NCBI GenBank assembly: GCA_048571215.1
Contig: CP182352.1
Location: 2,816,001 to 2,880,000 of the forward strand
Source of the DNA: Halarcobacter sp.
Lineage (GTDB): Bacteria > Campylobacterota > Campylobacteria > Campylobacterales > Arcobacteraceae
DNA: 64,000 bases
Reading direction: 5' to 3'
The notes below the pieces were generated by a model. It did not search any database. It was not told the origin of the DNA and saw only the letters and a program-made list of their open reading frames with translations. How positions within the stretch are numbered: position 1 is the first letter of the stretch; each line of letters starts with the position of its first letter. Shown in pieces: positions 2,184 to 24,408 of this stretch. Both the position numbers and the translations under genes were made by a program.

Positions 2184-3992
2184 TTGGAACCTATTGGTAT
2201 TTTAAAAGATGGTCAAATCTATGACCTTCAAACTGCGGAAGCTTTAAACTTAAGTGGAGATGAGATTAAAGCTGATAATTCACCCGAATCTCTAGAGATA
2301 TTAAGACACTCGTGCGCACACTTAATGGCTCAAGCAATAAAAGAGCTATATCCAGAGGCTAAATTCTTTGTTGGACCAGTTGTAAAAGAGGGATTCTATT
2401 ACGACTTTAAAGTAGAAGAAAAAATCTCAGATGAAGATCTTCCTAAAATAGAAAAAAAGATGAAAGAGTTAGCAAATGCTAAACTTAAAATCGAAAGATA
2501 TGAAACATCAAGAGAAGAGATCTTAGAAAAATTTGCAGATGATGAATTAAAACAAGCTGTGCTTAGTAAAATCAAAGATGATACACTAACCATATATAAA
2601 CAAGGGGATTTTGAAGACCTATGTCGTGGACCACATCTACCTAATACAAGAATGATTAGAAGTTATAAACTTACACGTGTAGCAGGTGCTTACCTTGGTG
2701 GTGATGAAAAAAATGAGATGATCACAAGAATTTATGGTATTGCATTTTTTGATAAAAAAGAGTTAAATGACTATGTAAGGATGCATGAAGAAGCTAAAAA
2801 AAGGGATCATAGAAAACTTGGAACAGAACTTGAACTTTTCACATTTAGTGATGATGTGGGAGCAGGTCTTCCAATGTGGCTACCAAATGGAGCACGTCTA
2901 AGATCAAAACTAGAGCATATTTTATACCATGCACACAGAATTAGAGGTTATGAACCAGTACGTGGTCCTGAAATCTTAAAATCTAAGATGTGGGATATCT
3001 CAGGGCACAATGCAAACTATAGTCAAAATATGTACTATACTACTATTGATGAACAAGAATATGCAATGAAGCCAATGAACTGTGTTGGTCATATTCAAAT
3101 TTTTAAGAACTCTTTAGTATCATATAAAGATTTGCCAAAAAAACTTTTTGAATATGGTGTTGTTCATAGACATGAGATGAGTGGAGCTATGCATGGATTA
3201 TTTAGAGTAAGAGAGTTTACTCAAGATGATGCACATATATTCTGTACACAAGACCAAATGAAAGAAGTTATATTTGAAGTTTTAGAATTTGTTGATTCTT
3301 TACTAAAACTATTTGATTTTAAATATGAAATTGAAGTTTCTACAAAACCAGAAAAAGCAATTGGGGATGATGATTTTTGGGAAAAAACAACAAAAGGTAT
3401 CATGGATGCACTTGATGAAAACAATATCTCTTATGGTATTGATGAGGGTGGAGGAGCATTTTATGGTCCAAAAATTGATATCAAAATTCTTGATGCTATT
3501 GGAAGAAAATGGCAATGTGGAACAGTACAAGTAGATATGAACTTGCCTTCTAGATTTGAAGCTGAATTTATTAATGATAAAGGTGAAAAAGAACAACCTG
3601 TTATGATTCACAGAGCTATATTAGGTTCTTTTGAAAGATTTATTGGAATATTAACAGAACACTGTGCTGGTGAGTTTCCATTTGCTATTGCACCAACACA
3701 AGTAATTTTTATACCAATTGCTGATACACATAATGAATATGCAAAAACTCTACAAAAAGAGCTTTTAGCAAATAATATGGATTCTAAAATTTTCAATATG
3801 AATGAAAGTTTAAATAAAAGAATTAGAATGGCAGAAAAACAAAGAGTTCCTATGATTGTAGTTATTGGGGATGAAGAGGTTGAAAACCAAACTATTGCAT
3901 TAAGAGATAGAAGAAAAAGAGAACAGTCAAATATGAGTAAAAATGAATTTTTTACAATGTTAAATGAGTTAAATAAAGGGAGTAAAATTTGA
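2184..3992 (+). CDS. thrS: Threonine--tRNA ligase
   Basis: [38 protein letters not shown] motifs; TTG start after AAGGA. Confidence 0.98.
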
Positions 3993-4525
3993 GTAGAGAT
4001 AAAAGAAAAGACGATGTTATAATGAATGAAGACATTACAGCAAGAGAAGTTAGGTGCACAGGTGATGATGGAACAAATTATGGAATTATTCCAACAAGCA
4101 ATGCCCAACAAACTGCTGATGAATTAGGACTAGATTTAGTTTTAATTGCACCTGATGCTAAACCACCAGTTGCTAAAATCATGGATTATGGAAAATTTAA
4201 ATATCAACAAGAAAAAAAGAAAAAAGACGCTAAGAAAAAACAAAAAGTTATTGTTGTAAAAGAGGTAAAATTTTCTGTAAAAATTGCAGATAATGATATC
4301 AACTATAAAGTAAAACATATTATAGAATTCCTTGAAAAAGGTTACCATGTAAAATGTAGAGTATTTTTAAAAGGTAGAGAGATGGCACACCCTGAAGCTG
4401 GTGCTGAAGTACTTGAAAGAGTATGGCCTATGATTGAAGAATATGCTGCAAGAGATATGGAACCAAAACAAGAGGGAAGATTTGTTAATATGAATGTTGT
4501 TCCTAAAAACGAGCATAAAAAATAA
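3989..4525 (+). CDS. infC: Translation initiation factor IF-3
   Basis: [14 protein letters not shown] motif; overlaps thrS stop; TTG start. Confidence 0.97.
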
Positions 4526-5420: not shown

Positions 5421-6020
5421 CTCAAATAGTTTTAGATAATTTCAATTGTATGCAGTTGTCTTGTAGAGCGAGGCTCTCCGCTTTCATACTTTTTAATTGT
5501 AAAAAGTATGGCAAAAAGCAACCAGACGGTTCTTGAAGCTAAAGTTCCCTCCAGTTTTATAATTATTTCCTGACCTGCGGGACTTGATATAAAACGTGAC
5601 ATTTAGTCACCTTTTATATCTTCGAACAAGTCCTCGGTCTTCTCCGAAAATAATTAGAAAACTTCCGGCTTCAACAAAGTCTGGACTAAATATACTAGCC
5701 ACAAACTTCCTAATTTAAATTTAACATAACACCAGTTTAAATAAAATGGTACAAAAAAATGTAAAGGTCCTTATCCCACTTTCCCGCATTTGAGAAACCG
5801 AGTGTTTATTTATCTCTTTTGAAAACAAGTGACTAAACTGTTTGAAGCGTAAAGAAACGTTCTGGGAGAACGTTTTAGCAAGTTTTTAGGCACTCAAAAG
5901 GGATAAGTAATAAGCGAGGGAACCTTCGGCTTCGAAACCCGCGGGATAATTTCTTTGCTACTTTCTTTTTTACAAAAGAAAGTTGAGAAAGCCAAGACGT
6001 ACAGTAGAAATTTAACTACA
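5421..6020. repeat. Structured non-coding ~600-bp repeat, copy 1 (module A about 5480-5684, module B about 5771-5992)
   Basis: Aligns to copy 2 at a 600-bp offset (CTTTCATACTTTTTAATTGTAAAAAGTATG at 5481 and 6081); long nested inverted repeats; no credible ORF. Confidence 0.92.
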
Positions 6021-6636
6021 CTCAAATATATTGATAATAGTTTTTATTGTCTGCAATTGTCTTGAAGAACAAGTTCTTCGCTTTCATACTTTTTAATTGT
6101 AAAAAGTATGACAAAAAGCAACCAGACGGTTGTCGAAGCTAAAGTTCCCTTCAGTTTTATAATTATTTCCTGACCTGCGGAACGCCTTCCTAAAAGGTAC
6201 ATTCAGTACCTTTTATCCAGTTGAACGGTCCTCGGTCTTCTCCGAAAATAATTAGAAAACTTCCGGCTTCAACAAAGTCTGGACTAAATACACTAGCCAC
6301 GAACTTTCTTTTGCAAATTGAGTATTACACCAATCAAAATAAAATGGTAGTAAAAATGCAAAGGTCCTTATCCCCACCTTCCCGCATTTGAGAAGCCGAG
6401 CGTTTATTTTGCTTTTCGGAAAAGTTTTTCAACTGTCAGAGCGTAAAAAAACGTAACTAACTTACGTTTTAGCGAGTTTTGAAAAACAGAAAAGTGAAAT
6501 AATAAGCGAGGGTAGTTTCACCTTTGAAACCTGTGGGATAATTTCTTTGCTACTTTCTTTTTTATAAAAGAAAGTCGAGAAAGCCAAGACGTGCAGTAAA
6601 AGTTTATTTATACTCAAATATATTGATAATAGTTTT
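6021..6636. repeat. Structured non-coding ~600-bp repeat, copy 2 (plus start of a further unit)
   Basis: Tandem with copy 1; same flanking motifs, diverged apical stems that still pair. Confidence 0.92.
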
Positions 6637-6901
6637 AACCCTACATACAACATAATATATTTATCATTTTGTTAAACTATCAAAATTTTCATCCAATAGT
6701 CATACAAAATGATATGCTATTAAGGATATACCTTAATAATCTAACATAAAAAATGTTCTACTTTTTCTTATATTATTTTGTATTTCACTAAATTTAGACT
6801 ATTTAAGGCTTATTTGAGTTAATATTTTTACATTTTAATTGTTAAGATATTAGATGTTTTTATACATTATTTATATATAATGTATAACTAATAAGTAGTT
6901 A
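6637..6901 (+). promoter_or_regulatory. Conserved cassette-array leader 1 (candidate Pc promoter region)
   Basis: Homologous to 12468-12718; contains ATTTAAGGCTTATTTGAGTTAATAT (resembles the thrS upstream ATTTAAG-N11-TAAAAT) and an inverted repeat TATACATTA/TAATGTATA with a TATAAT. Confidence 0.55.
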
Positions 6902-6904
6902 GTC
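6885..6904 (+). other. attI-like integron recombination site 1
   Basis: TAACTA-ataag-TAGTTA inverted pair ending in G|TTAGTC; homology with leader 2 stops right after GTTA, where cassette DNA begins. Confidence 0.65.
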
Positions 6905-6928: not shown

Positions 6929-7981
6929 GTGAATTTATATGACTATTTGTATGTTGATTTAGATAAAGCAATTTCATTGTACAGTCAGCTCACGGGAGGC
7001 GTTGTTGAGCTTAAGGAAACTCAATCTGAGAAAAGCATCACCTCAGACAACAAAAGAAATTACGATTTCAAAGTGTTTAAACATGATGCAGGTGGAACCA
7101 CTCAAGACAAAGATCAAGACAAAACAACAATCAAGCCTCATCATGCTCTGCTGCAAGAATTGGAAGCAGAATTATTGTCGTCAGGTTATCTCTTGGACTT
7201 AGACGGTCTTGATGGAGACAAAACCCTTAAAGACCTAGAGCTAAGAGCAACATTGAAAAATGCATTATGTATCAAATGCACAGGGTGAATTGTCATTGAA
7301 GACTATGAAAGAATGAAGAAAATTGGTAAAGACTTTCCTGATATCGTGAAACTTATCAATAGGAGTCATGCCGATTCATTAAAAGACAATCCTGAGTATC
7401 AGGCAATTGAACAGCAGATAGAAGAGCTTGAAAATACGACAGGTGATAGAAATAAGAAATCTAAGGCAAAACAAAAAGCAAAAGAATTAAGAGAAGTACT
7501 AGATAATTTAGTTTCCTCATCGACAGCGCTAGATGCTGTACCTCAGTGGATACTGGACGGGATGAGAACATGGATTGATGCTTTCTTGCCCAATATTACC
7601 AATATTCGAGTCTATCCCTTCAAAGATCAAAATGATGAGCATATCTTTGGGCATTTAGACTCAGAAAACTTCACAATTAATGACCCAACTGCGTTCCATT
7701 TCACATACGGGTCCTTTCCAACAGAAGAGTTTACCATACTTGGAATCGTAACCTCAGTACCACTGAATGAGGAGGAAAGCTTCTCCCCATTGGAAGAATT
7801 TGAAAAAGATGAACTAGAAGATTTCGAAAGTGTTGAAAGTGCTTTTCGCGGTATGTTTAGAGGGTTTGACGGTATGGAGGCAATGGTGAGAACTTGTCGA
7901 TATCCAAGAGTGTTAGTGCATCCAATTTTAGTTTATCGTCACACATCACCTAACAAAGCATTGCAGCGGACAAGCCGCTGA
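6929..7981 (+). pseudogene. Cassette 1 gene, hypothetical (possibly DUF6414-like), split by one in-frame TGA at 7286-7288
   Basis: ORFs 6929..7288 and 7313..7981 share a frame and read KCTG*IVIEDYERM across the stop; visibly more GC-rich than the host. Confidence 0.75.
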
Positions 7982-7995
7982 ATGCGGCGTTAGAT
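7948..7995 (+). other. attC site of cassette 1
   Basis: R'' ACCTAAC ... GCATT-g-CAGCGG-acaag-CCGCTG-AATGC ... R' GTTAGAT, with an extra-helical G in L''. Confidence 0.85.
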
Positions 7996-8017
7996 AAACA
8001 TAATAAGGAATATTAAA

Positions 8018-9859
8018 TTGAGCATAGAATTTTTAAAAACAGATTATGAAAAAATAGATTATTTAAGTAATTTATTAAAATCTCGTGCCACAGGAAAGGA
8101 AGCTTCTGATAGTGAATACAAAGCACTAAGAGATGAACTATTATTGAATAGAAAATTAGAACAATATTTTCCTATATGGTTGAAAACCAATGGAGATTTA
8201 AATTCATTTTGGAGATTTATAAAAGAAAAGTTTAAAACATATGATGAAAGAACTAAATTTTTATCTGATGAATTTCTACCTTTGTTAAATTATCTAATGC
8301 CAACAGAATTAAAGCCGGTATCAATTCCAAAAGATATTTTACCATTAGGTCAAGATACTTTAAAACAAAAACTTAATGAATATCTAAAAATACATAATGA
8401 AATAATCAATATATATGGGAATTTTATATTATCTACAAAAGTTTTAGGGAATGGTGGAACTTCTGTTGTTAAAGGATTTAATTTTAGTGGTAAAGAATAT
8501 GCTATTAAATTTTTACTTGAAAATATAAAACAAAAAGAAAGCACAACATTTAAACGATTTAAACAATCTCATTTAAATTTATTGTCCATTCAACATTCAG
8601 GAGTGGTATTACCACAAATACATTTTGATAGCATAAAGATTAATAATGAAACTCAAATCCCATATATAATAATGCCAAAAGCAGAAACTACTTTAAAAGT
8701 TTTTGTGGATGAGAAAAAAAGAAATGATGAATTTAACTTTATATTCTTTGAAAAATTATTTGATAATTTAATAAATATAGTTGATATAATTCATAGCCAT
8801 AATATTATACATAGGGATATAAAACCTGAGAATCTTTTTATTTTGGATGGAAGATTAGTTTTGGGTGATTTTGACATTGCTAAATTTAACGATAATCATC
8901 ACATTAAGCTTGTAGATACAAAAAAAGCCGATAGAATGGCAAATTTTTACTATTCTGCACCAGAACAATCAATAAAAAAATTTGATGAAATTACATTTTC
9001 TGCTGATTGGTATGCAATAGGACAAGTATTGTATTGGCTAATAACTGGCGATACATTAAGAGGTCAAGAGAATATATCTTTGGTTCAATATGATAAACAA
9101 TATGAAAAATACGAAACATTAATAAGAAATTTATTGTCTAATGAACCAAGCCATAGATTAAGTTCAAAAAAAGATATTAAAGAATTTTTAAATAGCAAAA
9201 AACAAATTAGATGGGAAGACACCTTACATAATTTTGATGATATTATTGTTTATAAGTATATGTCTGATTTTGGAGTTTCAAGACAAGGTTTTAAAGAATT
9301 TAACGATGTAGAATCCATTCTTGAAATAATGACTGATTTATCTAATAATACTGATAAATTAGCACTTTGGATAAGTCAAGGTTATTCAGACAGAGATGTT
9401 AAGTATATTTCAAAAAATAAAGACTGCGATGCTTGTTTTTTAATTGACTATTTAGAAATAAAAATTAAAACTATTTGGATATATAAACATTTTAATAGTT
9501 TTGGTGGTAGTACAATTATTATTGAAACAGACAACTATGAAGCTATTAACACAGATGCTAACAATATTGACTATTATGGTCTTTTTGATGGTAATATTAT
9601 AAAACCTGAAGAAGTTGATAGTGGCTGGGCAATAATAAATGGAAAAAGAACTAAACTTGATAAAACAGCAGAAGTGAGGGGAAGAGTTTTAAATAAAACT
9701 ATCTATTTTTTAGCACCATTTAAAGGTCCATTAGTTAAAAATGCTAAAATAATTGATAACTTATATAAATCTTACAATGAGGAAATTGGTCTAAATGAAG
9801 ATTTTTTAGCACCTCTTAAATCAATAAAAAGGAATGATGATATTATGATGATGTCATAA
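8018..9859 (+). CDS. Cassette 2 gene: Ser/Thr protein kinase with an N-terminal abortive-infection-like domain
   Basis: LGNGGTSVV, YAIKFL, HRDIKPEN, DFD (in place of DFG), YSAPEQ, DWYAIG; N-terminus FWRFIKEKFKTYDERTKFL resembles Abi-protein N-terminal domains. Confidence 0.85.
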   Translation: MSIEFLKTDYEKIDYLSNLLKSRATGKEASDSEYKALRDELLLNRKLEQYFPIWLKTNGDLNSFWRFIKEKFKTYDERTKFLSDEFLPLLNYLMPTELKPVSIPKDILPLGQDTLKQKLNEYLKIHNEIINIYGNFILSTKVLGNGGTSVVKGFNFSGKEYAIKFLLENIKQKESTTFKRFKQSHLNLLSIQHSGVVLPQIHFDSIKINNETQIPYIIMPKAETTLKVFVDEKKRNDEFNFIFFEKLFDNLINIVDIIHSHNIIHRDIKPENLFILDGRLVLGDFDIAKFNDNHHIKLVDTKKADRMANFYYSAPEQSIKKFDEITFSADWYAIGQVLYWLITGDTLRGQENISLVQYDKQYEKYETLIRNLLSNEPSHRLSSKKDIKEFLNSKKQIRWEDTLHNFDDIIVYKYMSDFGVSRQGFKEFNDVESILEIMTDLSNNTDKLALWISQGYSDRDVKYISKNKDCDACFLIDYLEIKIKTIWIYKHFNSFGGSTIIIETDNYEAINTDANNIDYYGLFDGNIIKPEEVDSGWAIINGKRTKLDKTAEVRGRVLNKTIYFLAPFKGPLVKNAKIIDNLYKSYNEEIGLNEDFLAPLKSIKRNDDIMMMS

Positions 9860-9864
9860 TGATT

Positions 9865-9877
9865 ATCTAACAAAACC
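9865..9877 (+). other. Truncated attC of cassette 2 (R'' box only)
   Basis: ATCTAAC is the exact reverse complement of the cassette's first bases GTTAGAT (7989-7995); followed by AAAAC as in attC3, then IS sequence. Confidence 0.7.
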
Positions 9878-9879
9878 TA

Positions 9880-10200
9880 CAGACTGTGAATTTAGTCCCA
9901 AATAAACTAAATTTACAGTAAAAATTCAAATTAACTTCCTAAATATCTGATATTTTTTCTTAAAATTTTTTGATATAAAAATTTTTGTAAAAAATAAACC
10001 AAATAAAGTCCAAACACTAAGATATATTCCTCTATATCTTTGGTAATTTGGGTTAAATCTTTATTTTTTATGGCTAAGCATAACTTTTGAAACAGATTTA
10101 TCCCTATAAGATTTAAAAGTCTTCTAAAATTATATGTAAACATAATAAGAGCATTTTCACCAAGTACTTTTTCTTTAGAACGAACTAAAAAATAATCCCA
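9880..10200 (-). mobile_element. IS1182-family remnant (transposase C-terminus plus element end)
   Basis: Minus strand reads WDYFLVRSKEKVLGENALIMFTYNFRRLLNLIG, like IS1182 DDE C-termini; ends in CACAGTCTG with a hairpin ACTGTGAATTTAGT/ACTAAATTTACAGT. Confidence 0.7.
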
Positions 10201-10244
10201 TATAACGCCCCATAGAATGAATTTCCACTTTTATAATAATTGTT

Positions 10245-10474
10245 AAGTATCACACCGATTCAAATAAAATGGTATCAAAAAATGCAAAGGTCAATTTCCT
10301 ACCTTTCCGCATTTGAGAAGCCGAGCGTTTATTTATCTCTTTTGAAAACAAGTGACTAAACTGTTTGAAGCCTAAAGAAACGTTCTGGGAGAACGTTTTA
10401 GCAAGTTTTTAGGCACTCAAAAGGGATGAATAATAAGCGAGAGTAGTTTCACCTTCGAAACCTGTGGGATGGTT
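10245..10474. repeat. Structured repeat copy 3, module B left part (interrupted by IS110)
   Basis: Matches 5730-5950 and 6325-6540; stops at CCTGTGGGATGGTT. Confidence 0.88.
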
Positions 10475-10514
10475 CGTATAATAAAATATTGGAAATATGA
10501 TAGTATATTTTCAT

Positions 10515-10716
10515 AGAGTTCAATAGAAGATGATATATTGTGTGGGTGGTTGAAGCAATTAAAAATAATTTTAATTAGCTTGTAAAGAAGTTCAATAGTT
10601 ATACTTCAAATTTGAGTGGCAACAAGAACAGTTTTATAACTAGTTCGTATTTACGAGTCTAAAGTTTGTATGACGAAATATCAGGTAGGAATTTTATTCC
10701 TACCCTAACGAACTCT
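10515..10716 (+). ncRNA. Putative IS110 bridge RNA
   Basis: Enclosed by AGAGTTC/GAACTCT; two internal loops carry GGGTGGTT + GTAAAGAA (target) and GTGGCAAC + TACGAGT (donor); TATAAT at 10477-10482. Confidence 0.7.
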
Positions 10717-10741
10717 TTATATTAATACAAAGGTTCTAGAT

Positions 10742-11725
10742 ATGTATTCTATCGGATTAGATATAAGTAAGTCAACAATTAATATTTATATCCCTATCAA
10801 TGATTTAGATATTCAAATATCAAATAATTTGAAATCACTTAAAGGTTTTTATTCTAAGTTAAAAAAACTTTATAAAAAAGATATAGATAAACTTGTATTT
10901 GTTTTTGAACCTACAGCTAATTATTCCTTTTTAATTAAAAAGTTTTGTTCTGAAAAAAGTATACACTGTTTTATTGTTAATCCAAAGAAAAGTGCTAACT
11001 TTGCTAAAGCAATTGGTCAAAGAAATAAAACTGACCTTTTAGATGCTAGAATGTTATCTCAGATGATAGTTACTGCAAGAAAAAATCAGATTAAAATACC
11101 CATTATTAATCCTTATGCCGAGGAATTAAAAGAGCTTATTACATATTATAAATTTATATCAAAAATTAAAACTCAAAATAAAAATCATTTGGAAGCTTTA
11201 GTTTCAAAAGATGCTTCATCTATTATAATTAAATCATTAAGAAAAGATATAAAATCATTTGAAAAAAAAGAAAAAGATATTCTTATTGAGATAAAAAAAG
11301 TTATTGCAAAAGACAAAAATTTACATAATGCATTTTTAAATATCCAAACTATAAAAGGCATAGGAGAATTATCTTCAATTATATTATTACACCATTTTAT
11401 ACAATATCCTGATACAAATCAAAAGCAAATTGTTTCATTAGCTGGATTAGATCCAGTTAGTAGAGATTCTGGTTCATCAATAAAAGGAAAAACAAAAATA
11501 TCAAAATCTGGTTCAAAATTATGTAGGGGTACATTATTTATGGCAGTAATGACAGCGATACAATACAATGAAGAATTAAAAATATTTTATAATAGATTAA
11601 AAGAGAATGGCAAACATACTACTGTAGCACAAATTGCTGTAATGCGAAAAATGATTGTAATTGCTCACTCATTATATAAAAATAATAATATATATGACCC
11701 TAATAAATTTAAAAGTATATCATAA
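10742..11725 (+). CDS. IS110-family transposase/recombinase
   Basis: IGLDISK, VFEPTANY, KTDLLDARML (RuvC-like DEDD) and IKGIG, AGLDPVSRDSGSS (Tnp domain serine). Confidence 0.95.
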   Translation: MYSIGLDISKSTINIYIPINDLDIQISNNLKSLKGFYSKLKKLYKKDIDKLVFVFEPTANYSFLIKKFCSEKSIHCFIVNPKKSANFAKAIGQRNKTDLLDARMLSQMIVTARKNQIKIPIINPYAEELKELITYYKFISKIKTQNKNHLEALVSKDASSIIIKSLRKDIKSFEKKEKDILIEIKKVIAKDKNLHNAFLNIQTIKGIGELSSIILLHHFIQYPDTNQKQIVSLAGLDPVSRDSGSSIKGKTKISKSGSKLCRGTLFMAVMTAIQYNEELKIFYNRLKENGKHTTVAQIAVMRKMIVIAHSLYKNNNIYDPNKFKSIS

Positions 11726-11773
11726 ATATTAGATTTAAATATTTTATATTTTATCATTTTTTAAGGTGGCAAC

Positions 11774-11843
11774 TTCTTTGCTACTTTCTTTTTCAGAAAA
11801 GAAAGTCGAGAAAGCTAAGAGGTACAATAAAAGTTTATTCACA
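11774..11843. repeat. Structured repeat copy 3, right end of module B
   Basis: TTCTTTGCTACTTTCTTTTTCAGAAAAGAAAGTCGAGAAAGC continues the sequence broken at 10474. Confidence 0.88.
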
Positions 11844-12467
11844 TTCAAATATTTTGAAAATAGTTTTAATTGTATACACCCTCTTGTAGAGCAAAGCTCT
11901 CCGCTTTCTCACTTTTTAGTTGTAAAAAGTAAGACAAAAAGCAACCAGACGGTTGTCGAAGCTAAAGTCCCCTACAGCTTTCTAATTATTTCCTGACCTG
12001 CGGAACGCCTTCCTAAAAGGTACATTCAGTACCTTTTATCCAGTTGAACGGTCCTCGGTCTTTTCCGAAAATAATTAAAAACCTTCCGGCTTCAACAAAG
12101 TCTGGACTAAATACACTAGCCACAAACTTCCTAATTTAAATTTAACATAACACCAGTTTAAATAAAATGGTACAAAAAAATGCAAAGGTCAGTTTCCCAC
12201 CTTCCCGCATTTGAGAAGCCGAGTGTTTATTTATCTCTTTTGAAAACAAGTGACTAAACTGTCTGAAGCGTAAAAAAATGTGCTGGGAGCACATTTTAGC
12301 AAGTTTTTAGGCACTCAAAAGGGATGAATGAAAAGCTCGGGGAGCTTCTGCCTTCGAAACCTGCAGGATGGTTTCTTTGCTACTTTCTTTTTCAGAAAAG
12401 AAAGTCGAGAAAGCCAAGAGGTACAGCAAAAGTTTATTTACACCTAAATATATTGATAATAGTTTTA
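11844..12467. repeat. Structured non-coding ~600-bp repeat, copy 4 (complete)
   Basis: Full A+B unit homologous to copies 1 and 2, followed by the same tail as copy 2. Confidence 0.92.
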
Positions 12468-12718
12468 GCCAATCACAATATAATATATTTATCATTTTGT
12501 TAAACTATCAAAATTTTCACCAAATAGTCATACAAAATGATAGGATATTACGGATATACGTTAATAATCTAACATATAAAAGTACATATTTATTTACTTT
12601 ATTTTATATTTTATTGAATTTTGACTATTTAAGGCTTATTTGAGTTAATATCTTTATGTTAAGATATTAGATGTTTTTATACATTATTTATATATAATAT
12701 ATTACTAGTAAGTAGTTA
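12468..12718 (+). promoter_or_regulatory. Conserved cassette-array leader 2
   Basis: Homologous to 6637-6901 (e.g. TAATATATTTATCATTTTGTTAAACTATCAAAATTTTCA, GTTAAGATATTAGATGTTTTTATACATTATTTATATATAAT). Confidence 0.55.
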
Positions 12719-12721
12719 TGT
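12702..12721 (+). other. attI-like integron recombination site 2
   Basis: TTACTA-gtaag-TAGTTA ending in G|TTATGT, which is the exact reverse complement of R'' ACATAAC of the next attC. Confidence 0.65.
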
Positions 12722-12737
12722 TCAGAGGAGATAAATT

Positions 12738-13100
12738 TTGTTAGAAGTCATAATATTTGCATTAATAATAATCATTTTGGGTGTACTCCCAAGTATTTGG
12801 TACCTTAAAAGGAAAGAAAAACCTGCTGAAGTTAATCAAAAACCGAATATTATAATAGTAATTTTAGGTTCGATACTTTTAATTGTAAATACATATTTTA
12901 CATATATTTTGAATAAAGGCTCTATAGCATATGTTTTTGGTGCGGTATATTTTATTCCAATTGTTTTAATCCTAATTTTCAATGAAAATTGGAATAAAAG
13001 ATGGAAAATTATACTGTTTACACAGTTTATAATTTTCTTAAGTGTTTTGGGTAATTTGATGTCAGTAGCTCAAGAAGTTGCTAAAACTCAAGGAACATAA
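12738..13100 (+). CDS. Cassette 3 gene: small multi-pass membrane protein
   Basis: GAGGAG RBS, TTG start, about four hydrophobic segments, stop codon lies inside the attC R'' box. Confidence 0.8.
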   Translation: MLEVIIFALIIIILGVLPSIWYLKRKEKPAEVNQKPNIIIVILGSILLIVNTYFTYILNKGSIAYVFGAVYFIPIVLILIFNENWNKRWKIILFTQFIIFLSVLGNLMSVAQEVAKTQGT

Positions 13101-13163
13101 CAAAACATTGGAGAGAAATATTTGACCCTGCGGCTCAAATATTTCTCAACTCAAACGTTATAC
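13095..13163 (+). other. attC site of cassette 3
   Basis: R'' ACATAAC ... GAGAAATATTTGA-ccctgcggc-TCAAATATTTCTC ... R' GTTATAC. Confidence 0.85.
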
Positions 13164-16124: not shown

Positions 16125-17315
16125 CTATTCTAAAGGTTCATTAACTGTAATATTACAGTTAGTTCCTTTACACTTTATATTTGCATCAAAATAATAGATT
16201 TCACTGATATCATATTTTGCATTTTTTAGTTTCATCCAGGCATCAATAGATCTACCACCTGCTGTACAGTTAAATACTACTGTTTTGCCTTTTGGTAGTT
16301 TTGCATAGAAGTCTTTTGCACTTAGCTTTTCTGCTTCTATATTTATAGCACCTTTGATATGTCCTGTTTTATACTCTTCTGGACTTGTTACATCAACAAT
16401 TTGGATAAATGAAGGTACTTTATCCCCTTTTATATATTTTAAAAGCCATTCACCATCTACACTTCCCTCATCTGAACCTAGTTTTAAACCATTTTTACTC
16501 ATAGTTGGTTTTGATGATTTTTTCACTTTTTTTATTTTTGAAGCTGATTTTGTAGTTGCTAAACCTGCTTTTTTCCATTGGGGAACTCCACCTGCAAAAA
16601 CTGAAACATTTTTATAAGCCATTGAAACCATTTTTTTTGCGACATTATGTGATTTTGCACATGCATATCCTCCACAAAAAATAATAACTCTTTGCATTTG
16701 ATGAACAGGAAATCTTCCTTTTAGCTTTTCAACTTCTGTATCAGGAATAGCAAGTGCTCCAGGAATTGTTTCTTGTAAAAACTTAGTATATGGTCTTGCA
16801 TCAATTAATAGTGCTGAATTATATTTATATGCAGCTTTGACTACTGCTAGACCAACTTCTATATAACTTTTTTTTCTCCACTCTGGCTCGCCAGCTTGGT
16901 ATAATTTTACATTTGTAAAACCATCTTTTTTAAGCATATTTGCAACTTTTGGAGATTTTCCACAAGCCCATCCTCCACAAAATACAATTATCTCTTTGTT
17001 TTTAGGAGTATCTTTTAACTGTCCCACATATTTTGCATAGTCTGTATCTGGGATATTTATAGCACTTGGAATAGTCCCTTTTACATATTTTGTCTTTGGT
17101 CTTGCATCTATTAAAACTGCTTTTGCACTTTTTCTAGTCCCTTTTCCAATTATATTTTTAACATAATTGTAATCTACAACTTGCAGTTTAAACTTATCTA
17201 TCATAGTTTGTACTTTTGCACTTGGTTTATTTAAAACTTCAGTACTATTTGCATACGCACCAGTTGATAAAAGTGTAGCTAATACTAAACTTTTAATGAT
17301 TAATTTTGCATTCAT
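16125..17315 (-). CDS. Exported triple-domain rhodanese/sulfurtransferase
   Basis: Signal peptide; three rhodanese repeats (IDARP..CGGWAC, IDARP..CGGYAC, VDVT..GHIKGA..CTAGGRS). Confidence 0.9.
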   Translation of the reverse strand: MNAKLIIKSLVLATLLSTGAYANSTEVLNKPSAKVQTMIDKFKLQVVDYNYVKNIIGKGTRKSAKAVLIDARPKTKYVKGTIPSAINIPDTDYAKYVGQLKDTPKNKEIIVFCGGWACGKSPKVANMLKKDGFTNVKLYQAGEPEWRKKSYIEVGLAVVKAAYKYNSALLIDARPYTKFLQETIPGALAIPDTEVEKLKGRFPVHQMQRVIIFCGGYACAKSHNVAKKMVSMAYKNVSVFAGGVPQWKKAGLATTKSASKIKKVKKSSKPTMSKNGLKLGSDEGSVDGEWLLKYIKGDKVPSFIQIVDVTSPEEYKTGHIKGAINIEAEKLSAKDFYAKLPKGKTVVFNCTAGGRSIDAWMKLKNAKYDISEIYYFDANIKCKGTNCNITVNEPLE

Positions 17316-23146: not shown

Positions 23147-23809
23147 TTAATTTTTATAAAGATAAGTCTCTATATATTTTGCCATATCTTTAGGGTCATA
23201 TTTCATACCCTTTTCTTCTATCTTATTTTGGTTATGTTCCATAATTTCGTGTTCTGTTCCAGAAGATTGATTTAATCCCCCATCTCTTATATCAATTAAC
23301 TCAACTTCAATTTCATGTGCAGTTTTATCATTTAGGGCAGGTCCTTTCTTTTTAGGATTCCCTTCACCATTTATCCCATGACATTTTGAACACATTTTTG
23401 CATATATTTCAGATACACTATAATCTTTTTTTTCATTTATATCTTTATAATATTTTGCTTCTGGATTATATGTTGTAAAAATAAAGTTTGCCATTGATTT
23501 AGGTTCATAATTCATACCCTTTTCAATAATCTTCTTCATATTATGTTCCATAACTTCATGCTCAGTTCCAGAAGATTGATTTAAGCCTCCACTTTTCAAA
23601 TCATACAAACTGATTTCAAGTTCATGTGCAGTTTGATCATTAAGTGCAGGTCCTTTTTTTGCTGGATTCCCCTCTGCGCTTTGTCCATGACATTTTGAAC
23701 ACATTTTTAAGTATATTTCAGCATCAGTATAACCATTATCTATCGCATTAGCTCCAACTGCAAAAATAGATACCAGAAAACCTAATAAAATTGCTTTCTT
23801 AGCTTGCAT
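23147..23809 (-). CDS. Diheme c-type cytochrome with two tandem duplicated domains
   Basis: Signal peptide MQAKKAILL; CSKCH twice in near-identical context; AAGGA RBS favours the 23809 start. Confidence 0.85.
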   Translation of the reverse strand: MQAKKAILLGFLVSIFAVGANAIDNGYTDAEIYLKMCSKCHGQSAEGNPAKKGPALNDQTAHELEISLYDLKSGGLNQSSGTEHEVMEHNMKKIIEKGMNYEPKSMANFIFTTYNPEAKYYKDINEKKDYSVSEIYAKMCSKCHGINGEGNPKKKGPALNDKTAHEIEVELIDIRDGGLNQSSGTEHEIMEHNQNKIEEKGMKYDPKDMAKYIETYLYKN

Positions 23810-23823
23810 TTTGATTCCTTTTC

Positions 23824-24408
23824 TCATTTTTTGTTAGAGATAGTTACTACAACAGCACCTCTAACTTCTCCACTTTTATAGCCATATCCTCTATCGTTTT
23901 TATAAACTTCTGAGAATCTTTTTTTTGACTCTTTATCAACTTTTTTTTCTAAACCATGACATTTTTTGCAGTCTCTACTTTTCATCTGTATAGGGGCATA
24001 TACTTTATATACACCCTCCTTTACAATTTGTACTATCTGTTCTGGTTCGTATGCATCAGATTTTTCTATTAAATCAAAAGCTTTTAAAATCTTAAGCTCA
24101 TTATCTTGCGGTTTGGCATTTTTATTCCTATTATTAAGACTCACCCTTTTTATAAAAACCTTAGGAGCATATTTTTTATTTAGCTTCTCTAAAACCTTTT
24201 TAGACTCATCAATACAATAGCTAGTCATTGCCTTTGTTCCACCTGATCGTTTTGCATCTTTTAGCTCTTTTTTCAATGTGGACTCAAACTCTTTTGTAGC
24301 TTTCGCCGCAATTTTTTTCACATCTTTCAAGGCTAAATCATTTGCACCCAAAACACTTACAAATATAAATGTTAGTAAAACACTACTACTTATAAATCTC
24401 ATTTTCAA
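23824..24408 (-). CDS. DUF3365/Tll0287-like monoheme cytochrome c
   Basis: RVSLNNRN, CKKCH, GYKSGEVRGAVVV. Confidence 0.8.
   Translation of the reverse strand: MKMRFISSSVLLTFIFVSVLGANDLALKDVKKIAAKATKEFESTLKKELKDAKRSGGTKAMTSYCIDESKKVLEKLNKKYAPKVFIKRVSLNNRNKNAKPQDNELKILKAFDLIEKSDAYEPEQIVQIVKEGVYKVYAPIQMKSRDCKKCHGLEKKVDKESKKRFSEVYKNDRGYGYKSGEVRGAVVVTISNKK

Follow-up and report, generated by a model that had tools for sequence, protein, structure and literature searches.

A paired ~210-nt folded repeat of Halarcobacter, sister to extended TwoAYGGAY elements, is joined to integron platforms with putative attI sites and no integrase

Introduction

The TwoAYGGAY motif (RF01731) was scored as probably an RNA by its discoverers (Weinberg 2010, PMC2864571). 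In its extended form, according to the accessible text of a preprint, it is a multicopy repeat with 68.4% divergent doublets and mobile-element-like spread, its frame includes a 3' pseudoknot and upstream 5-6-mer repeats, and a Csr/Rsm-binding role has been proposed for its loops (Li et al. bioRxiv 10.64898/2026.09.22.753630). That text describes neither a variant without AYGGAY loops nor a link to integrons. A further motif, ARRPOF (RF02933), is 255 nt long, occurs in AT-rich hosts and has a multi-stem fold with function unknown; its homodimer trait is a 12-bp complementary bulge (Weinberg 2017, PMC5737381; PMC12990946). Integron arrays that lack an integrase are described as CALIN (PMC4889954, PMC9024848), and the DUF1874 motif is a structured motif that recurs between variable genes (PMC5737381).

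We analyzed a window of 64 kb (C1:2816001-2880000) from the complete 3.61-Mb genome of a Halarcobacter sp. (G000; 28.5% GC), in which a preliminary description had noted a 600-bp repeat as a candidate structured RNA or single-stranded DNA element. The repeat is of the already known extended TwoAYGGAY kind and represents a new tip variant. To what is described we add the folding strand, evidence from models for the link to TwoAYGGAY, a dedicated clade of IS110 elements and the joining of the repeat to integrase-less integron platforms. In the accessible parts of the literature searched, we found no description of the tip variant or of an attI-fused Arcobacteraceae repeat; the supplements of PMC5737381 and of Li et al. 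could contain a related motif.

Genomic context

The element array begins directly 3' of the terminator of a thrS-infC-rpmI-rplT run (names taken from the translations, with thrS additionally identified by Pfam) and opens a variable island (Table 1). At the rplT site of five relatives, two have no element within the ~800 nt read, and in one of these the next gene is almost adjoining. One relative has a single B copy together with a gene and a short block resembling attI, and the remaining two have an A copy at the identical junction.

Table 1. Elements, platforms and neighboring features in the window.
Feature	Position	Strand	Basis or remark
Element copy A1	5478..5686	-	R1 180 bits; fold z -6.57 (5455-5715 minus); strand by G-U/A-C counts
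Spacer between two 5' ends, with predicted sigma70-like hexamers	5687..5780	.	
Element copy B1, inverted homologue of A	5781..5989	+	R1 139.5 bits; fold z -2.82 (5745-6015)
Linker between doublets	5990..6077	.	Outer inverted ends and a degenerate piece aligning with the 5' end of an integron integrase gene
Element copy A2	6078..6284	-	R1 177.6 bits
Promoter-like TTGAGT-16-TAAAAT directed into B2	6318..6345	+	Consensus match only
Element copy B2	6379..6581	+	R1 156.7 bits
Integrase-less integron platform: degenerate intI 5' stub, promoter region, attI-like end	6596..6904	+	Alignment with intact intI platform and motif scan; GTT 6898-6900
First cassette-like gene, DUF6414	6929..7981	+	
attC-like hairpin	7949..7999	-	DNA fold z -4.90; ends TAAC...GTTA
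Second cassette-like gene, Ser/Thr kinase domain	8018..9859	+	
Small separate repeat D, left end of B-only copies	10203..10232	+	26 fuzzy matches in genome
Element copy B3, 5' part, cut by IS110	10304..10474	+	
IS110 element, transposase 10742-11725	10475..11774	+	Inserted just 5' of the B 3' hairpin
Element copy B3, 3' part	11775..11838	+	
Element copy A4	11901..12107	-	R1 169.6 bits
Element copy B4	12202..12411	+	R1 135.4 bits
Second integrase-less platform	12425..12721	+	GTT 12715-12717
Small cassette-like gene, no Pfam match	12738..13162	+	attC-like hairpin 13097-13162, z -6.78

The DUF6414 gene is interrupted by an in-frame TGA stop (7286-7288), and both halves match the same Pfam family. 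Elsewhere in the window, internal repeats of ~305 bp were found within genes at 16125-17315, where they are domain repeats of a gene that looks rhodanese-like, and at 23147-23827, which holds a second tandem domain pair. At one shared chromosomal site beside a HIT-family-like gene (L110, L114, L044), the element is accompanied by three different cargo genes in three genomes.

Organization and fold of the element

In the folding orientation, the element starts with a basal stem, followed by a second stem ending in AAGCCG, a long variable stem and a bulged short stem. The tip consists of the invariant loop CUGUUUGA opposite GAGUU and then an apical hairpin. The 3' part has a GAGGG(A) bulge with a variable hairpin, then a U-tract and an ACUUU hairpin. 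Copy A1 shows this arrangement as a basal stem, a long rod, an apical hairpin under the conserved UGUUUGA/GAGUU-type loop and a 3' U-tract hairpin.

All of the stems quoted in the preliminary description are present in the sequence (e.g., CCAGAC at 5523 with GTCTGG at 5681, and TTGAAGC with GCTTCAA), as are its 16-bp AT stem (with one A.G mismatch), the apical variants of A, the three apical variants and both middle stems of B, and the kept loop motif. It had counted four copies of the repeat, a number that falls far short of the 66 matches to model R1 in the genome, 54 of which are near-full. It had also treated the 600 bases as one molecule composed of two different modules. That part does not hold, as modules A and B are homologous: the plus strand of A aligns with the minus strand of B with a local score of 86 (38.6 +/- 6.8 in shuffles, with a maximum of 64 among 300), compared to 34 for A and B in the forward sense.

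The strand on which each copy folds is indicated by the balance of G-U over A-C pairs. For A copies, the ratio is 238/74 when read on the minus strand and 97/127 on the plus strand, and for B copies it is 488/87 on the plus strand and 158/165 on the minus strand; owing to the relatedness and mosaicism of the copies, the pairs counted do not represent independent events. When helices were chosen by Watson-Crick pairs alone, ratios of 96/22 (A-minus, six main helices) and 54/24 (B-plus, three) were obtained. The G-T pairs described earlier as tolerated are thus present, but for module A they belong to the minus strand. Given the inverted homology of A and B and the strands of G-U excess, we conclude that the 600-base repeat is a divergent doublet of one ~210-nt element, in which A folds on the minus and B on the plus strand. 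The 5' ends meet in a ~95-nt spacer and the 3' ends point outward.

The other part of the earlier claim, selection on a single-stranded fold, stands and is supported more strongly than four copies could show. The unit at 5437-6036 folds far better than shuffled sequences (z -8.97 on the plus strand, -6.90 on the minus strand). In a hand-set structure for 41 copies from Arcobacteraceae, 40 of the 59 pairs are altered on both sides, which bears out the compensatory changes first reported. In this alignment, 81% of cells are paired, and the covariation score is 0.353, compared to 0.152 in shuffles (0 of 500 reach the observed value) and no more than 0.187 for slid controls; one 5-pair helix of the structure is out of register by one column, and the covariation tests are inflated by the relatedness of the copies. 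A cross-phylum core of 23 sequences has changes on both sides at 32 of 35 pairs. The same fraction (32/35) was obtained for 28 distinct metagenome matches fitted to the model, where the fitted alignment leans towards the structure. Selection is indicated because stems shift from AT-rich to GC-rich with the register kept, which is hard to explain otherwise.

Copies, doublets and their variants

We classified the top 54 of the 66 R1 matches as 22 A and 32 B copies. All but one of the A copies (21/22) adjoin the start of a B in back-to-back orientation. The B copies follow an A (18), repeat D (12) or neither (2). Twelve full genomic units have 72-92% identity to one another and combine a few sub-variants as mosaics; many copies are cut short or split by IS110. 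Whole doublets have terminal inverted repeats, which are clearest in relatives G033 and G248; divergent doublets with terminal inverted repeats also occur on two GC-rich metagenome contigs. The few doublet flanks read show no direct target duplication, and the relatives compared yielded no exact pair of empty and filled sites.

A ~22-nt insert with a palindromic core occupies different hairpin loops of the element, possibly as a footprint or as a loop-targeting mini-repeat. It has eight matches in the genome (C1:267706, 963602, 967225, 1464578, 1717520, 1717941, 1721359 and 2523274), all within or adjoining element copies, while a reversed control has none; it is also found in L112, L144 and L251.

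Relationship to TwoAYGGAY, ARRPOF and Rfam families

Searches of the window against Rfam returned nothing at the gathering threshold and only chance-level matches at E up to 10, with RF01731 unmatched. There was likewise no match at 13 related loci or 2 phage loci, and nothing at 20 of the 80 metagenome loci other than matches to miRNA models at one unrelated locus. A resemblance to ARRPOF, raised in the preliminary description, is not borne out: RF02933 is unmatched at the repeats and has its best genome match elsewhere (E 0.36), in a search run without an ARRPOF-positive control, which leaves room for a distant relationship. The element is similar to ARRPOF, so far as the accessible descriptions go, in length, AT-rich hosts and a multi-stem fold. 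It differs in that searches of plasmids and phages gave no copy, and in that the self-complementary bulge is not consistently present and a variable hairpin occupies that position; judged by eye, the bulge is palindromic in some copies only.

Among described families, the extended TwoAYGGAY elements are the nearest, a link that goes through GC-rich relatives. Both are multicopy, with strongly variable copy number, and form divergent doublets. The Pseudomonas copies that we fetched share the basal stem, GCCG(A), the long stem and GAGGG(A) with its side hairpin, as well as a 3' end composed of a U-tract and ACUUU hairpin and then a terminal hairpin. However, where TwoAYGGAY has two AYGGAY hairpins, the element has one apical hairpin under the invariant UGUUUGA/GAGUU loop and no AYGGAY; also, the side and terminal hairpins are shortened in the AT-rich Arcobacteraceae copies. 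The extended TwoAYGGAY 3' frame (GAGGG side hairpin, basal stem, U-tract hairpin and terminal hairpin) is present in GC-rich members.

We built a model (R2) from only the 3' halves of 13 Pseudomonas TwoAYGGAY elements. It matches the Roseateles copy over its full length (E 1.8e-11) and the Rheinheimera copies at E 5e-4 to 0.12. At E <=2.3e-4, R2 matches 15 places in 12 of 22 loci, one of which is the Roseateles locus already counted. In nine metagenome loci among the 12, the R2 match lies directly behind the match to the core model (R3) on the same strand; the metagenome search pattern and R2 have six bases, GAGGGA, in common. Four of five Pusillimonas loci are unmatched and the fifth is matched weakly. 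Other Arcobacteraceae loci have E values of 0.011-0.66. For the window, the best value is E 0.17, and four of the 11 matches listed are element 3' ends in the folding orientation. In the reverse comparison, R1 has no significant match to TwoAYGGAY elements. As R2 matches GC-rich relatives but the window only at E 0.17, the element constitutes a sister family that is linked via those relatives. On sequence grounds, we classify it as sister to the extended TwoAYGGAY elements through GC-rich intermediates, from which it differs in the tip but not in the frame of TwoAYGGAY, and not as a member of RF01731.

The unexplained TwoAYGGAY repeats would then be one tip variant of a wider modular family. 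This would also narrow where function must lie, to a common frame for spreading and a swappable tip for recognition. Should cassettes and insertion sequences use the element as nothing more than an inert target, it would still represent a large uncatalogued repeat family absent from Rfam 15.

Distribution

By DNA search, the element was identified in 22 of 24 genomes of the same genus, 2 of 12 other Arcobacteraceae genera and none of 24 other families. Using core model R3, we identified it in 45 of 121 Arcobacteraceae genomes, with 1 to at least 28 copies each. Close copies occur in Arcobacter and Halarcobacter, and some genera of the family have no element in their sampled genomes. Occurrences outside the family are real but rare, and include Rheinheimera (7 and 12 matches), Pusillimonas (9) and Roseateles (8); several of these outside-family loci were part of the R3 training set. 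Burkholderiales are thereby among the carriers, and weak single matches were found in one Sediminibacterium and one Peribacteraceae genome.

In phylum-wide samples, 2 of 151 Campylobacterota genomes have the element, both of them Arcobacteraceae, and 1 of 151 Pseudomonadota genomes, which is the seed itself; with scoring limited to 16-22 candidates in each genome, weak copies may have escaped. Among 80 metagenome loci selected by pattern, we obtained 29 matches, 11 of which have 48-72% GC. None of 80 viral pattern loci has a real element copy, and blastn against plasmids and phages gave only short chance-level matches. At two Rheinheimera loci, divergent copies bracket DUF5343/HEPN genes.

Fusion to integron platforms

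The genome has one intact intI (TIGR02249, 398 bits), with its attI near G000 896469; the attI-like sites in the window are at 6874-6904 and 12690-12721. The stretch behind B2 (6596-6904) aligns with the region of this intact integron integrase from approximately codon 13-17 through its promoters to attI. Direct homology is weak (E 0.1), and the alignment runs via intermediate copies at 68-73%. A clear integrase stub is present at 1803731-1803799 of the genome (G000; 78% identity over 23 aa, E 0.002) and a weaker one at 1717884-1717922.

Our motif scan of the genome identified 15 attI-like ends, of which 13 are located behind a B 3' end, one belongs to the intact intI and one has no element. 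Thus, 13 of the 14 integrase-less attI-like ends sit ~170-330 nt behind the 3' end of a B copy. All 16 array-terminal B ends selected for alignment run to an attI-like end, and the sequences diverge right after GTT; a platform is missing behind at least two terminal B copies. The coupling recurs in five relatives, where an element 3' end precedes 9 of 12 pattern matches by 260-490 nt; one of the 12 is at a contig start. The genes downstream of the platforms look like accessory genes, several of them with an attC-like hairpin at the end. We identify these regions as integron platforms, with putative attI sites, from their homology to the intI-attI region, the divergence after GTT and the attC-ended genes downstream.

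Around 30 intact or near-intact intI loci, searched to a distance of 1.5 kb, we identified no convincing element and a single weak match (E 0.036), which argues that the fusion is lineage-specific; these loci give no support to the element as a normal part of intact integrons. Given the many copies that are fused to broken integron starts, it is likely that gene-capture sites are distributed over the chromosome by the repeat. The simplest history would be a single junction between element and integron, followed by spread of the fused block. As in CALIN, attC-ended cassette-like genes occur here without a neighboring integrase; unlike in CALIN as described in the accessible text, each array retains an attI-like end and an integrase stub, fused to a separate folded repeat. 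The repeat also resembles the DUF1874 motif in recurring as a structured sequence between variable genes. It differs from both in being located upstream of an attI-like site and being itself no attC. Scattered integrase-less cassette arrays could in this way have a testable origin in a repeat that carries an attI-like site along.

A GC-richer, structured non-coding cassette of ~180 nt occurs twice in the intact integron array, once directly at attI (L037:1990-2180 and 3890-4070, corresponding to G000 near 896500 and 898400).

IS110 elements that target the repeat

Two IS110 elements are inserted in the repeat in this genome. The first has four identical copies, all in B just 5' of the 3' hairpin, and the second has three copies, at the conserved GAGTT (GAGUU) motif. 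All seven IS110 copies in G000 are therefore at fixed element sites, and an IS110 of a relative uses a third insertion site. Among IS110 loci of relatives, the element is present at 16 of 23, at one of them ~1.2 kb away. The clade occurs in 22 of 121 genomes, and the element in 18 of the 22 IS110-positive genomes compared to 27 of the 99 others, although related genomes in these counts are not independent. Because the element is split at three different internal sites, we ruled out IS110 as the mover as a main reading, and read this clade as a parasite of the repeat. It is a clade of IS110 bridge recombinases for which this repeat is identified as the natural target. Our searches for a mobilizing enzyme found none, and there is no reverse transcriptase in genome G000.

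RNA or single-stranded DNA

By eye, a variant of the promoter-like spacer is present upstream of 31 of the 32 B copies, including B-only copies. Five tRNA promoters of the genome have the form TTGACA-17-TATAAT, whereas the hexamers of the element spacer are 16 nt apart. A promoter scan yielded 7 sites compared to 5.2 +/- 2.2 in shuffles and recovered one of four expected spacer promoters; two GC-rich doublets have spacers in which no such promoter was seen. In B, the U-tract pairs with the predicted 5' end, with pairing that begins near the predicted start. G-T pairs are compatible with DNA as well. Based on the spacer, the 5'-end pairing and the kinship to TwoAYGGAY, RNA is somewhat ahead of single-stranded DNA as the folded molecule.

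Proposed explanation and alternatives

Our preferred explanation, which we hold with modest confidence, is that a paired, ~210-nt folded element with the TwoAYGGAY frame multiplies at the DNA level, likely non-autonomously, with its fold kept on one strand, probably as an RNA made from the predicted spacer promoters. The invariant tip loop (UGUUUGA opposite GAGUU) may replace the two AYGGAY hairpins as a putative recognition site for a host or helper factor. A junction between a copy of the element and an integron would have formed near codon 13-17 of the integrase. Copies would later have duplicated and recombined with one another, distributing the block of promoter and attI over many sites. 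At the attI-like sites linked to the repeat, cassettes would be loaded in trans by the single intact integrase. More speculatively, TwoAYGGAY and the element may be two tips on one ancient selfish chassis, which here would have hijacked an integron promoter and attI and set out more than 12 putative landing pads served by one integrase in trans. We put this forward only tentatively; if true, it would represent a distributed integron built by a structured repeat.

It is also conceivable, though we consider it unlikely, that each element functions as a small RNA gene and is retained because it benefits the host, for example as a multivalent binding site for a regulator, with multiplication being secondary. 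The conserved fold and invariant loop across phyla would be expected of such a gene, and the promoter-like spacer upstream of nearly all B copies (B-only copies included) and the pairing of the predicted B 5' end with the U-tract are consistent with it. However, the element was not found in 76 of the 121 family genomes, many copies are truncated or split by IS110, and the promoter scan is not above shuffles. The proposed Csr/Rsm role of TwoAYGGAY loops (Li et al. bioRxiv 10.64898/2026.09.22.753630) would favor a regulator, but it does not transfer to the element due to the absence of AYGGAY loops. Less probable again is a single-stranded DNA, REPIN-like doublet moved by an HUH (Y1/RAYT) transposase and capturing cargo between or beside its arms.

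REP sequences, with their REPIN doublets, BIMEs and RAYT transposases, are intergenic inverted doublets in tandem arrays that often lie just after a terminator. REP repeats are also targeted by IS110 elements, according to the accessible literature. The repeats analyzed here share all of these features, and the terminal inverted repeats of the doublets, the DUF5343/HEPN cargo genes flanked by arms in Rheinheimera and the tolerance of G-T pairs in DNA fit a movement of this type. They differ from REP in being multi-helix units of ~210 nt rather than short palindromes, and we could not tie them to a Y1 gene. Genome G000 does encode one REP-associated-like Y1 transposase (78.2 bits, cut-off 80), but a different motif lies upstream of it. 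Y1 transposases show no useful co-occurrence with the element (present in 21 of the 45 genomes that carry it and in 28 of the 76 that do not), the element is beside only 1 of 30 Y1 loci, and the complete genomes G229 (12 copies) and G234 (at least 28 copies) have no Y1 match. Y1/RAYT as the mover thus has no support. Still more doubtful is the reading of the doublet as a MITE, for which a DDE transposase (e.g., that of IS1182) would act in trans. The terminal inverted repeats on whole doublets would agree with this, as would short ORFs adjoining three B-only copies, which may be IS1182-like remnants. The label was not confirmed by Pfam for the three ORFs, and the only genomic match to PF13751 is below threshold. 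Single copies are common, and the few flanks read show no direct target duplication.

Sequences associated with the element

One of the ORFs mentioned above is in the window at 9864-10143, where an attC-like start is interrupted by a hairpin and this short minus-strand ORF. It resembles ORFs adjoining two other B-only copies and may be an IS1182-like remnant, an assignment for which Pfam gave no confirmation.

Repeat D (at 10203-10232 in the window and 25 other places in the genome) is also found without the element, often paired around arrays of short toxin/immunity-like ORFs. Some D copies adjoin motifs similar to that upstream of the Y1 transposase of the genome, and D may be its cognate repeat.

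At element 3' ends (5945-5989 in the window; L023, L027 and L380), the U-tract and the stem of the 3' hairpin appear, by eye, to change together. An all-U tract occurs with an all-U stem and a C-containing tract with a C-containing stem, and a U-to-G change occurs with a C-G pair. Joint changes of this kind are what a triple helix or slipped pairing would require.
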